A DNA stretch of 64,000 bases from Myxococcales bacterium (GCA_016708565.1 JADJFN010000037.1:64001-128000), one strand, 5' to 3'; shown: positions 54,131-64,000, numbered from the stretch's first letter. A program made the numbers and translations. Notes: generated by a model not told the origin, from the sequence alone.

Positions 54131-57100
54131 ATGAGCAGGGAACATCGCGATGAAGGCAAGGAAGCAGCACCGCCAGCGGCGAGCGTGGGCGCGAGCCCGA
54201 CGCGCCGCGTGGACGCGCCTGTCGTGGACGCCGGCTACCAGGCTCAGTGCGACGCTCGCGTGCTCCAGTTTCTCAGCGCGCCGTTGCCGCTGACGCCGTC
54301 GGAGCGTGAGGCGCGCGAGGCTGGCGGTGATGCGAGCGGCGTGCACGCGGCCGCGGAGCGCGGTGTCTCGGGTGCTGCGACCGTGCTGCCGCACGGCGAC
54401 ACCATCCAGGCGGCCTTCGGCCCGCACGACATCTCTGGCGTGCGGGCCCACGTCGGCGGCGCCGCCGCCGACGCCTGCGGTGCGATGGGCGCGAGCGCCT
54501 ACGCGACCGGCAACCAGGTCGCGTTCGCCGGCCAACCCGACCTGCACACGGCCGCTCACGAGGCCGCCCACGTCGTGCAGCAACGCCAGGGCGTCCAGCT
54601 GTATGGCGGCGTCGGCGAGGTCGGCGATGTCTACGAGCGGCAGGCGGATGTGGTGGCGGACGCGGTGGTGGCGGGCAAGTCGGCGGCGGGGCTCTTGGGG
54701 GCGCCGTCGGCGGAGGCTGTTTCAACGAAGTCAGTGCAGGCCTTCGGCGGGCTCTACATCGCAGGTGCGTCCCCAGCGGCGCAACCCGCCGCGAACGGCG
54801 GCGCGGCGCCGGCGTCGACCGCTGCGGTCACCGGTCCCAGCGTGAATCGGCTGGTGGCGACTGATCCGTCGGTCGAGTTCGGTCCGACGCCCGTCGGCGC
54901 GACGACGTACAAGCCGCTCACGTTCGTCAACCGGGGTGCCGAACCGGTGGAACCCAGCGACTTCGTCGTCCGTCCGGGTGTCAACGCTCAAGAGGACGAC
55001 TTCAGCGTCGCCGGCGGCGACGCGACGAGCGGCGCCGCGCTCGCGCCGGGCGAAGCGATCTCGCTCCAGGTCGCGTTTCATCCGCACCCGCGTCCTGACC
55101 AGGATCCCAAGCGGTGGCCGGGGCGCGTCGCGCACATCGACGTGCTCGACCTCGCGGGCGCGCGGGCCGGTTCGGTCAAGGTGCGCGGGAAGCCGCGGCC
55201 GACCGATGAAGCGACGCAGGGGGCGCACGAGGCGGCAGAGTTGGTAGGTGCGAGCCGCAACCACGCCGACGTGGCGGCGCCGGTGTCGTACGCCGACATG
55301 CTCGCGAACCTGCGGGCCGCCCGTGAGCTGCTGTCGACCGGCGACCGTGATCACGCCCAGGCGCTGATCCACGCGGTGCGCGAGCGGATGGCCGGGACGC
55401 TACGCGAGGACAAGTCATGGCCGCGCCTGCGTGGGTTCGGCCTCGGCGCGCAGGCCGGCCTTCACCTGATCAACGAAGCGTACGACGCGGTGGTGGCCGC
55501 CGACCGTGGCCTGGGTGCGGACTGGCGGGTCGACGGGGACAAGCTGGTGATGATGCTGGAAGCCGCGCGCGAGCCGATCCAGTTCGTCCTCAAAGAAACA
55601 AAGGACGCGCCGACGCTCCGCGCGTTCCACGACGCGTCGCCCGCGGTGATGGTGGGAAACGCGATCGAGGGGATGGCCGAGCACACGATCGAGATGGTCA
55701 CTGACGCCGAGTACACGGTCGGCTATCTCTCGGGCCTGGTCGAGGGCGCGTACGGCGCGGTCCGCGATCTCGTCATGGGCTTCGCCGACCTGGTCGGCAT
55801 GACCGCCGACATCGTGAAGGCGATGTGGTCGCGCGGCTTCGTGGGCGCGGTCCAGCACTTCGGGCGCCAGGTCGCTGACATCTTCGACAAGGCGCCGGAG
55901 TTGCTCGAGGCGCTCGGTGCGGACTTCGCGCGCAAGTGGAACCAGCACGGCTCGTTCGACCGCGGGAACTTCCGCGGCGAGGTGATGGGCTACATCGCCA
56001 TGCAGATCCTGCTCATCATCGCCACGGCCGGCGAGGGTGCCGCGGCCGCTGCGGGGCGGTGGCCGAAGGTGTTGCAGGTCATCCGCACGCTCGACGCCGC
56101 CGGCGACATCTTCACGTGGGCCGAGACGGCAGCCGACGGCGTCCGCGCGCTCCGCAAGGGCGCCAAGGCGGTCGGCAAGGCGGAGGACGCGGTCGACGCG
56201 GCCGGCAAGGGCGGGGGCAAGGTGCTGAAGATGGGCGGCGGCGGTGCGCCGGATGCGCCGTCGGCCGGCAAGGTCCCCGGTGGGCCGGAGGTCGACGCGC
56301 CGAAGGCGGGTGCGCCGCAGGCCGATGCGCCGCACGCCGATAGGCCGGCAAGCGCAGGCCCCGATGCTCCGCGCAAGGGCGGCCCGTACAAGGCCCCGGA
56401 CGATCCGACGCGGGAGCCGCATCATCCCGTGCGCGCACTCGAGGATGACGAGCTCGCCAGCTCGAAGGACTTGCGCCCCGTTCAACGCGGACGAGACCTG
56501 GTCGCGGATGGCTCGCGCCCCGTTGGCAAGGTCCTGAAGACCCGAGCTGAAGGCGAAGCCATCCTCCAACTCCTCGCGCAAGGCGACCGAAACGCGCTCG
56601 CCGCACTCGACATCGTGGACATCCCGAAGAAGCTGAAAGTGACCGAGCGCGAGTGGGCGCTCGTGCAAACGCGCGATGGGTTTCTTGTGTACATCGGCGA
56701 CGCGGCGAGGGTCGACTTGCCGGCGAATGTTCGCTCCGTAGCGCACAGCCATCCGACGCACAAGCAGGGAAAGCGCCTTGAGTTGGACGTCCCGGATGGA
56801 AAGGGCGGCGTAGCCTTCACGGATATCGTGAAAGATCCCCACAAGGCAGCGGACACGGGCCTTCTGCCGTCTGCCATGGATCTGCACGTCGTCTCCGATG
56901 GTACGGAACACACGCTCCATACGCAGTTCGTGATGGACTGGGATGGTACGATCACCAACGCGGTAGAGGGGGACACGCGGCCACGCGTACAAGTACGCAT
57001 CAGCAAGTCGCGGGTTATTCGCTACAACGAAGGCCGGAAAGGCTACTGGTATCAAGCGCAGTTGGACGTCAGCGCTGGCGGGCAGGCCATCTGGAGCGGC

Positions 57101-57205
57101 GACTTCTTCGGCCGAAGGTCCTTCATTGCCGCCGACGATCAGGTGAAGTTTCATCGTTTCCCGGAGCTGGAGTACCCGCCGTCAGCGGACCAAGTCGATC
57201 CATGA
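54131..57205 (+). CDS. DUF4157-like zincin (HEAAH) multidomain protein, toxin-like (paralog A)
   Basis: 1024-aa [69 protein letters not shown]. The central region and a ~300-aa C-terminal domain ([22 protein letters not shown]...) are shared with 60808..63915. D/A/P-rich linker with [20 protein letters not shown] repeats. Confidence 0.8.
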
Positions 57206-58092
57206 GTTGCTTCACCTATCCTGAGTTCTACACATGCTGTGACGGGCGGTTTCTCGTTCGCCGTCGTTTGATTCTGGGCACGGGGATCTACGACGGAATC
57301 CGGACTAGCGATCAGCGGCCTCTTCTCGTTACCAGCGTTCAGCCCCATCGACTCGATAGCTTGATCGATGCGATCACGTATGAGGTACCAGGCACGACCA
57401 AGCTCCTGGGGGTTACACAGATCGATCTCGGCTCGTGGCAGCCGCAGCCAGGCGATGACCTTGACGATCCGTGCATCGACACAAAGGAGGACCTCCCTGA
57501 AGGATTCGTGCTGGTCGTCGAGACGCGGCCGGTTGGGCGGTCCCTTCGCATCCTGGGCCCAGGCGGGCCGCTGGGCGCTGTCGGTATCGGGCACGGGCTC
57601 CTTCTGACCGCGAGCGCCGCCGCACAAGCGGACGTGTTCCTCGAAGGGATCCGACCCGAGACCGTGTATGCGGACGGCGACCTGTACAGCGGATGTCATG
57701 CACGCCTATGGCGCGTCGAGATGAGCCCACGGCGGCAAGCCGAGTTCCGTGGAGCCTTCGAACCCGGCGGCTTCTTTGCGCCGGAGATCCTGTGCTCTGA
57801 ACCACCGACGCCGACCAGCGATGCGTTTGCGGCGGCGGCGGTACTCTGGTGGTTCGCCACTGGCAGCGATCCGTTCGGTGGTGCGAACGTGGACTTCACC
57901 CAGCGAATCGTCGACGGCCAGCTCGAGCCGTTCCAAGGACCTCCCGAACTCGGCGAGGTCCTGGTGCCGATGCTGGCGCGCGATCCCGCGGCCCGGCCGT
58001 CGGCGGCCGAGTCGGCGGATCGCCTCGCGGCGCTGGCCTGTCGCTGGGATGTGCCCATCGCGCCGTTTCCGCCGCCCGGGCTCGATCAGTGA
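57202..58092 (+). CDS. protein-kinase-like fold protein with degenerate catalytic motifs (probable pseudokinase)
   Basis: ATGA overlap with the upstream gene. Gly-loop-like [10 protein letters not shown] without the VAIK Lys. Catalytic-loop-like [14 protein letters not shown] without the HRD Asp. FFAPEIL APE motif. [20 protein letters not shown] subdomain IX-like. Confidence 0.65.
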
Positions 58093-63800: not shown

Positions 63801-63915
63801 GAGCGGCGATCTCTACGGGCAACGCGGGTTCCAGACCGACACCGACAAGGTCTCGTTCAAGCGCTTCGGTGAGCTGGATCGTCCACCCCCGGTGAGCTAC
63901 GTCGATCCGCCATGA
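60808..63915 (+). CDS. DUF4157-like zincin (HEAAH) plus SH3b plus LysM multidomain protein, toxin-like (paralog B)
   Basis: Internal ATG of track ORF 60769..63915. Its N-terminus [15 protein letters not shown]...[27 protein letters not shown] aligns with paralog A. DUF4157 core [19 protein letters not shown]...[18 protein letters not shown]3b-like [36 protein letters not shown]. LysM-like [17 protein letters not shown]. The conserved C-terminal ~300 aa are shared with paralog A. Confidence 0.8.
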
Positions 63916-64000
63916 GCCTCGTCACCTACCCCGAGTACTACACGTGTGGCGAGGGCCGGTTCCTGGTCCGCCGGCGGTTGATCGTCGGCACCAGCATCTA
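63912..64000 (+). CDS. pseudokinase-like protein, paralog of 57202..58092 (5' fragment at window end)
   Basis: ATGA overlap with the upstream gene. [29 protein letters not shown] aligns with [29 protein letters not shown]. Confidence 0.6.
   Translation, partial: MSLVTYPEYYTCGEGRFLVRRRLIVGTSI

Follow-up and report, generated by a model that had tools for sequence, protein, structure and literature searches.

Two paralogous DUF4157 proteins of a Myxococcales bacterium carry a JAMM-motif domain that is coupled to a pseudokinase

A stretch of 64,000 nt from a Myxococcales bacterium (GCA_016708565.1, JADJFN010000037.1:64001-128000; called the window below) contains close to its 3'-end two paralogous two-gene modules, A and B, which lie on the same strand and are 3.6 kb apart. 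The first gene of each module encodes a large protein with a DUF4157 domain and an unclassified C-terminal domain with a JAMM motif, and the second gene encodes a pseudokinase. The carrier is a known polymorphic-effector scaffold, and the JAMM-motif domain is strictly coupled to the pseudokinase. In our view there is about an even chance that the pair represents a polymorphic effector of the type associated with extracellular contractile injection systems (eCIS), e.g., the Photorhabdus virulence cassette (PVC), with the pseudokinase as its cognate inhibitor or immunity partner. DUF4157-led proteins are the main predicted class of eCIS cargo, and most of their effector domains are uncharacterized. 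The window proteins define a recurrent domain family with a putative catalytic motif (E, HxHP, PSxxD) that is amenable to experimental tests. No paper describing DUF4157 together with a pseudokinase was found in the literature searched.

Architecture of the carrier proteins and the JAMM-motif domain

Genes A and B (Table 1) had been proposed to be paralogs in a preliminary description of the window, and this was confirmed. BLASTP comparison of the two proteins revealed 55% identity over the N-terminal 206 amino acids (aa; E 5e-45) and 57% identity over the C-terminal 512 aa (E 0.0), and the final 256 aa are 73% identical. The common elements listed in that description, i.e., the leader, the HEAAH core, a motif of the central region, the D/A/P-rich linker, and the C-terminal motifs, were all found in both proteins. 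No BLASTP alignment was obtained over the middle of about 320 aa (A 191-518, B 206-545). The PF13699 scores of 47.2 bits for A and 33.2 bits for B are both above the gathering score of 22, and the HExxH zincin motif is present as HEAAH in both proteins. The helical region contains a stretch resembling a transmembrane (TM) segment, with Kyte-Doolittle values of 1.66 and 1.84 over 19 residues in the two proteins, and a signal peptide was found in the leader of neither A nor B. For gene B a start at position 60769 is possible, yet the ATG at 60808 is the start used in its orthologs. The D/A/P/H/K-rich linker of gene B (about 62947..63141) varies in repeat content and length among the window and the related loci L001, L002, and L004, and it behaves as a variable low-complexity spacer.

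DUF4157 corresponds to the PVC-metallopeptidase in Zhang et al. (2012; PMC3482391) and specifically marks toxins linked to eCIS (Geller et al., 2021; PMC8213781). Known cargo proteins begin with a disordered loading sequence at the N-terminus, which is followed by DUF4157, a long linker, and the effector domain at the C-terminus (PMC8213781; bioRxiv 10.64898/2026.05.27.728243), and the disordered sequence directs cargo loading via an AAA+ ATPase (bioRxiv 10.64898/2026.05.27.728243). Like the DUF4157 toxins of eCIS, including Cgo1 and Cgo2, which are AlgoCIS cargo, A and B have a leader without signal peptide, a DUF4157 domain with HExxH, a very long linker and middle, a putative effector domain at the C-terminus, and shuffled parts. 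In contrast to these toxins, their C-terminal domain is not represented by any model in Pfam, NCBIfam, or PHROGs. Within the clade of the window proteins it is the middle module that varies and not the C-terminus, which is conserved, and PF13699 was also detected in 17 of 26 distant full-length members of the family.

The family of the C-terminal domain was delineated with a profile of the last approximately 256 aa, which retrieved 96 representatives at E≤1e-3 from 1.84 billion proteins searched; 56 of them reached E≤1e-10. This exhaustive profile search was used instead of a word-indexed search with the domain of B, which returned only two matches and missed the syntenic orthologs; a narrower alignment of the domain retrieved two genome loci and nine metagenome loci. 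E841, H872, H874, P875, S914, and D917 (numbering of A) are conserved to 98-100% in 86 representatives, in which the motifs H872-x-H874-P875 and P913-S914-x-x-D917 are conserved as well, and E841, H872, H874, S914, and D917 are invariant in an alignment of 37 sequences (A3). The residues E ... HxH ... S-x-x-D represent the catalytic and zinc-binding signature of JAMM. The AlphaFold (AF2) model of the domain has a predicted local distance difference test score (pLDDT) of 96. In this model a strand begins at the Glu, a strand ends at HxH, and a helix begins at SxxD, an arrangement known from JAB domains, and a long four-stranded sheet follows at the C-terminal side of the JAMM-motif part. The concern that the domain might turn out to have a benign structural fold was not borne out, in that the JAMM-type metal/catalytic motif is invariant. 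Foldseek found no match to the model in the PDB, and sequence and profile searches with the domain against the PDB yielded nothing meaningful. Searches of Pfam, NCBIfam, and PHROGs with the 37 members gave no match at E≤1 that was common to more than two members, and none was a JAB family. The domain family is undescribed.

The pseudokinase and its linkage to the JAMM-motif domain

The second genes start within the stop codons of the first genes. The 4-nt ATGA overlaps (57202/57205 and 63912/63915) and the paralogy of the two partners that had been reported before were both confirmed, with 22 of the first 29 codons of partner B identical to partner A. The full-length ortholog of partner B in L002 (10001..10885) has 294 aa. 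Sequence searches with partner A detect the kinase C-lobe only (Pfam, E 1e-3; MLKL pseudokinase, E 4e-5). Its AF2 model (pLDDT 83), on the other hand, had 1990 Foldseek matches in the PDB at E≤1e-3, the top ones being NEK7, Abl, FAK, and PknA (E about 1e-10, TM-score 0.6-0.7, about 290 columns).

In an alignment of partner A with genuine Ser/Thr kinases, in which the PknB sequence had been entered manually, LLVT stands in place of VAVK, LEGIRPET in place of HRDVKPAN, and YSG in place of DFG. Across the partners, the beta3 Lys has given way to Thr or Ala, HRD to LEG, LGG, or LCS, and the catalytic Asn to Thr or Ser, and DFG has become YSG or is absent. The same losses are found in distant partners of only 27-33% identity. 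The reported lack of the VAIK Lys and the HRD Asp was correct, and it extends to the catalytic Asn and the DFG Asp. The product of the second gene has a full bilobal protein-kinase fold with lost catalytic residues and is thus a pseudokinase; it has neither a DUF4157 domain nor a leader of its own. It resembles known pseudokinases (MLKL is the best match by sequence; NEK7, Abl, and PknA by fold) in its complete bilobal fold, in the retention of APE, the subdomain IX Asp, and the subdomain XI Arg, and in the loss of the catalytic Lys, Asp, Asn, and Asp. It differs from them in being a stand-alone protein of 280-300 aa that is strictly tied to one hydrolase-like domain, and in having an N-lobe insert, D-x-x-S-W-x-P-x-x-G, which is conserved in the partners.

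Pairing was scored by scans of six-frame open reading frames (ORFs) with hidden Markov models. A gene of the pseudokinase family follows the JAB-like gene at a distance of 0-1 genes in each of the 17 non-redundant loci whose downstream DNA was readable (window A, L001, L002, L004, L006, L011, L015, L018, L019, L020, and L021-L027). Several of these are near-identical (e.g., L022 and L002, 1.00 in both identity matrices), so that they represent about 8-9 lineages. Module B has the same arrangement, with 29 partner codons visible, and was not counted. The coupling noted in the window is thus conserved far beyond its genome. The pseudokinase start often overlaps the upstream stop codon, and the pairing also holds where the JAB-like protein has no recognizable DUF4157 part. 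Short stand-alone versions of the domain exist as well, e.g., in L027, where a protein of 342 aa is accompanied by a pseudokinase of 281 aa. The pseudokinase of L011 is 27% identical, and that of L019 forms the C-terminus of a 632-aa protein. The locus of one relative runs on into small overlapping genes, including one for an immunity-type protein of the SUKH/SMI1_KNR4 family.

The pairwise identities of the JAB-like domains and of the pseudokinases correlate (Pearson r = 0.93). For L018 and L024, the domains are 95% identical and the adjacent pseudokinases 61%, perhaps because the partner has diversified or has been exchanged.

In three relatives, the gene directly after the B-type pseudokinase encodes a protein of 665 aa that ends in a CDC48-like AAA+ domain (PDB matches with E about 1e-39; Table 1), and this arrangement probably follows in the window genome, too, just past position 64000. 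In L001, L002, and L004, a 154-aa ORF also directly follows the B-type pseudokinase. No adjacent AAA+ gene was found in module A or in the distant loci L011, L015, L019, and L020.

Table 1. Features of the two modules, of the region between them, and of related loci. Nucleotide positions refer to the window unless a locus is named; aa, residues of the encoded protein.
Feature	Position	Strand	Remarks
Gene A	54131..57205	+	1024 aa; ORF confirmed
Gene A, leader	aa 1-91		conserved
Gene A, DUF4157/eCIS_core (PVC-metallopeptidase) domain	54404..54592, aa 92-154	+	PF13699 E 2.5e-12; HEAAH aa 143-147
Gene A, specific middle	aa 191-518		Ig-like segment (ASH / choice-of-anchor-D)
Gene A, helical region common to A and B	aa 519-690		one hydrophobic TM-like segment
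Gene A, D/A/P-rich linker	aa 691-768		
Gene A, JAMM-motif (JAB-like) domain	56435..57202, aa 769-1024	+	E841, H872-x-H874-P875, P913-S914-x-x-D917
Pseudokinase partner A	57202..58092	+	296 aa; start overlaps stop of gene A (ATGA)
Gene B	60808..63915	+	1035 aa; same leader type, DUF4157, helical region, linker, and JAB-like domain as A
Gene B, DUF4157	aa 118-171		HEAAH at aa 160
Gene B, specific middle	aa 206-545		differs from A; weak LysM match
Gene B, helical region common to A and B	aa 546-713		
Gene B, JAMM-motif (JAB-like) domain	63142..63912, aa 779-1035	+	HTHP aa 882-885, PSAMD aa 923-927
Pseudokinase partner B	63912..64000	+	first 29 codons only within the window
CDC48-like AAA+ gene	L001 10943..12940; L002 10940..12937; L004 6442..8451		after the B-type pseudokinase
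164-aa ORF	58112..58606	+	directly after pseudokinase A; no family match; called as gene on the identical metagenome contig L030
Small membrane-protein gene	58606..59310	+	234 aa from ATG, 208 aa from GTG at 58684; also in L002
Lipoprotein gene	59307..60104	+	265 aa, lipobox LGAC, 9 Cys; also in L002
Disrupted lipoprotein gene	60134..~60700	-	109-nt deletion and frameshift versus L002 6082..6642

Possible functions of the pair

According to the effector reading, the first gene would encode a multidomain effector of the DUF4157 class, composed of the leader, the HExxH domain, an exchangeable middle, the helical segment, a low-complexity linker, and the C-terminal domain of about 250 aa. Judged from the invariant E...HxHP...PSxxD and the predicted topology, the C-terminal domain would be a JAMM/JAB-like Zn-dependent hydrolase, presumably toxic and delivered by an eCIS-type route. 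The second gene, which is translationally coupled to the first, would encode a catalytically dead kinase fold that binds the effector and prevents activity of the hydrolase inside the producer until export of the effector, which would leave the pseudokinase behind. Binding of the two proteins to one another is suggested because the pseudokinase adjoins the domain in all lineages studied and both show parallel divergence. A role as inhibitor or immunity protein is favored because of the order of the genes and their translational coupling, their strict linkage, the co-divergence with faster evolution of the partner, and the loss of the module as a unit (see below). If the partner is an antidote, a kinase-derived fold would join the known immunity proteins, and a matched inhibitor would be at hand for engineering.

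Several observations weigh against this reading. In contrast to the DUF4157 toxins of eCIS, a scan of large ORFs of the window revealed no domains of an eCIS, a type VI secretion system (T6SS), a sheath, a tube, a baseplate, or another delivery apparatus, so that A and B are linked to eCIS by the DUF4157 marker only. A kinase-fold immunity protein of 296 aa was not found in the literature searched, and many DUF4157/eCIS toxins have no immunity gene (PMC8213781). The domain is internal in about 42 of the 96 representatives, which are distant relatives, and is followed there by 140-1570 further residues. These extensions form 21 mutually unrelated BLAST clusters and therefore represent polymorphic tails; the view of the domain as a non-polymorphic oddity had to be abandoned, as it occurs in 96 representative clusters and carries polymorphic extensions in about half of them. 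Small genes lie between the JAB-like gene and the pseudokinase in L015 (126 aa) and in L020 (140 aa), where the pseudokinase is part of a 600-aa protein, and both the non-terminal position and the small gene in distant relatives also fit the role of a processing peptidase. An unrelated 216-aa gene lies in front of the pseudokinase homolog P0015 (L009), whose contig is short (2 kb). Lastly, three points concern the JAB assignment. The spacer between HxH and SxxD has about 38 aa, compared to about 7-10 aa in canonical JAMM. The Pfam JAB models matched none of the 37 family members at E≤1. Comparison with a JAB profile using hhalign gave 13 columns only, around HSHP, with a probability of 3%, and thus no support for homology; that profile was entered manually and recovers CSN5, Rpn11, AMSH, BRCC36, and AfJAMM in the PDB with E 1e-33 to 1e-49.

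The domain shares the motif order and the secondary-structure context with canonical JAMM/MPN+ proteins (AfJAMM, PfJAMM1, Rpn11, CSN5, AMSH, BRCC36, and Cap3 of CBASS). Unlike these, it gains no homology support from profile-profile comparison, and its loci have no genes for ubiquitin-like, E1, or E2 proteins in their context. Polymorphic toxins are known to carry the JAB domains Tox-JAB-1 and Tox-JAB-2, which have an "E, H[ST]H, S, D" signature, and two divergent clades of JAB toxins have been suggested to be possible nucleases rather than peptidases (Zhang et al., 2012; PMC3482391). The signature, the C-terminal position in a large protein of the polymorphic-toxin type, and the dedicated downstream partner gene are common to A and B and to Tox-JAB-1 (with Imm65) and Tox-JAB-2 (DUF4329, with Imm-NTF2-2). 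The differences are that the new family is unmatched by Pfam models (E≤1), has the longer spacer and the extra C-terminal four-stranded sheet, is carried by DUF4157 and not by RHS proteins, and has a partner with a kinase fold and not a lipoprotein or an NTF2-fold protein. Models for Toxin-JAB1 and DUF4329 exist in Pfam and would be among those without a match. Taken together, we think it rather likely that the domain truly belongs to the JAB/JAMM superfamily, and we call it JAMM-motif or JAB-like without filing it as an established member. Should it be a JAMM-type peptidase, it might act on ubiquitin-like conjugates in eukaryotic prey or on bacterial proteins; nucleic acids are also possible substrates, as has been proposed for RadC-like JABs.

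Strict pairing and translational coupling would also be expected if the pseudokinase were a chaperone or adaptor, which stabilizes the cargo or presents it to the loading AAA+ ATPase, or an allosteric activator or co-delivered co-effector of the JAB-like enzyme. Eukaryotic JAMM enzymes need partners (Rpn11-Rpn8, BRCC36-Abraxas, CSN5-CSN6), and MPN+ enzymes normally pair with an obligate non-catalytic partner. The CDC48-like AAA+ gene directly after the B-type pseudokinase points in the same direction, as do the requirement of an AAA+ ATPase for eCIS cargo loading (bioRxiv 10.64898/2026.05.27.728243) and the many eCIS toxins without immunity genes (PMC8213781). However, the pseudokinase lacks a DUF4157 domain and a leader, the AAA+ gene is missing next to module A and in L011, L015, L019, and L020, and the faster divergence of the pseudokinase in some pairs, as in L018 and L024, is more typical of specificity-determining antidotes than of chaperones with a general function. 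A function of this kind is therefore possible but unlikely.

The internal position of the domain in distant relatives with its 21 clusters of unrelated tails would be explained if it were an autoprocessing or releasing peptidase, which cuts at the linker or before a C-terminal toxin and is regulated by the pseudokinase. According to Zhang et al. (2012; PMC3482391), a peptidase that sits just before a C-terminal toxin usually has a processing function, and the pseudokinase stays linked even where a separate small candidate immunity gene follows the tail. Under this assumption the window proteins would have lost a terminal toxin, or the payload would be another part of the protein. This explanation appears quite doubtful to us: the domain forms the C-terminus in the window proteins and about 45 representatives in all, so that nothing is left downstream to be released, the short stand-alone domain of L027 has its pseudokinase, and the terminal JAB-like domain is under strong purifying selection.

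The genes might instead form, for example, an intracellular stress, defense, or protein-turnover module that targets proteins of the same cell by means of a JAMM-like hydrolase, a pseudokinase scaffold, and, in the case of copy B, a CDC48-like unfoldase, with DUF4157 as a processing zincin. Such a module would agree with the missing secretion and injection genes among the large ORFs of the window and with the missing signal peptides of A and B. The combination of JAMM and an AAA+ unfoldase is reminiscent of the lid of the proteasome. The AAA+ protein and the pseudokinase also weakly match models of the anti-phage proteins IetA/IteA and MAD6 below threshold, but these matches cover the generic AAA domain and kinase C-lobe, respectively, and are far below the curated cut-offs, and PADLOC finds nothing for the large proteins. 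Moreover, DUF4157 is highly specific for eCIS-linked toxins, with an odds ratio of 2614 (PMC8213781), and shuffled middles, polymorphic tails, and gain or loss between near-identical strains are typical of conflict or effector genes, all of which makes such a module improbable. A known anti-phage system was rejected, the PADLOC matches being generic kinase and AAA matches only.

Within the preferred reading as effector and inhibitor, the kinase fold of the partner invites a further speculation, to which we assign a low probability: the pseudokinase might be a substrate-mimic decoy. The hydrolase would then be directed against protein kinases, or against a protein with a kinase fold, of target cells, and the dead kinase would occupy the enzyme in the producer. 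If true, this would be a new toxin activity together with a new, kinase-derived class of immunity proteins, and the B-type pair would act with a CDC48-like unfoldase.

History and surroundings of the modules

Module A and module B had been regarded as a tandem duplication. Their paralogy holds, a local and recent event does not. Synonymous divergence (dS) and its relation to nonsynonymous divergence (dN/dS) were estimated according to Nei-Gojobori, taking the sequence of pseudokinase B from L002. For A versus B, dS is 1.35 and dN/dS 0.145 for the JAB-like domain, and 0.83 and 0.19, respectively, for the pseudokinase; dN/dS between orthologs is 0.13-0.26 (A versus L006; B versus L001 and L004). 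Because of these high dS and low dN/dS values, both copies must be regarded as old and as having been kept by purifying selection. The G+C content at third codon positions (GC3) is 0.75 in the JAB-like domain and 0.74 in the pseudokinase of A, compared to 0.94 and 0.92 in B, and it is also low (0.68-0.72) in the A-type ortholog L006. A-type orthologs are present in L006 and L030, and B-type orthologs in L001, L002, L004, and L021-L023. Copy B is the syntenic one, as L001, L002, and L004 hold a single B-type gene with its pseudokinase after PhoD or a variable region. Two similar modules 3.6 kb apart on one strand may suggest an assembly artefact or a very recent in situ tandem duplication, but with 76% nucleotide identity in the common part, the dS values, unrelated middles, and separate orthologs of both types in other samples this is practically out of the question and was rejected.

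Near-identical strains differ in whether they have module A. On both flanks, L002 shares 97-98% identity with the window, yet it lacks 53895..58472. At 4386..4422 it contains a relic of 37 nt, 95% identical to the HSHP-encoding part of gene A (window 56719..56755), which joins directly onto the 3'-end of the 164-aa ORF (window 58473 onward). The relic indicates that the common ancestor had module A, which was then deleted in L002, i.e., it was lost as a unit; the alternative, an insertion of module A into the strain of the window, was rejected for the same reason. Neither direct or inverted repeats flanking module A nor a mobile-element signature were found. The presence and absence of the module in strains that are 97-98% identical offers a ready comparison for work on ecology and competition.

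Four ORFs are located between the modules, and not three as had been reported, and the Cys-rich lipoprotein gene is indeed among them. The 164-aa ORF has a low-GC3 codon usage like module A and was partly lost with it in L002, where its 3'-end survives beside the relic of gene A; it may be part of module A. The membrane-protein gene and the lipoprotein gene are outside the duplicated module. The deletion in the minus-strand lipoprotein gene, just upstream of gene B, is located at about 60345 (versus L002 6297..6401) and has a 4-nt microhomology at its junction.

The window has a G+C content of 72%, and its closest relatives are metagenome-assembled genomes labeled Myxococcales bacterium. Exopolysaccharide genes (Poly_export, Wzy_C, Wzz/AAA_31, Polysacc_synt_2) and a PhoD phosphatase gene lie upstream of the modules. 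Rfam detected no RNA family anywhere in the window. The ORF 23448..25097 (+) encodes a reverse-transcriptase domain (RVT_1, E 1.5e-16) and may belong to a retron, a group II intron, or a DGR. The longest ORF with Obg GTPase domains (aa 569-851; 16832..19540, +) has an N-terminal extension of about 560 aa, which may be due to an over-long ORF call in high-GC DNA. A third DUF4157/eCIS_core protein of 824 aa is encoded at 35719..38193 (+; Pfam E 5.5e-15); its C-terminal region is unrelated to A and B and is devoid of the JAB-like domain. It is followed by an ORF of 561 aa (38217..39902) with no family match and by a gene for a HEAT-repeat protein of 872 aa (39794..42412), and a HEAT_2 gene is also present near one of the distant pseudokinase loci.

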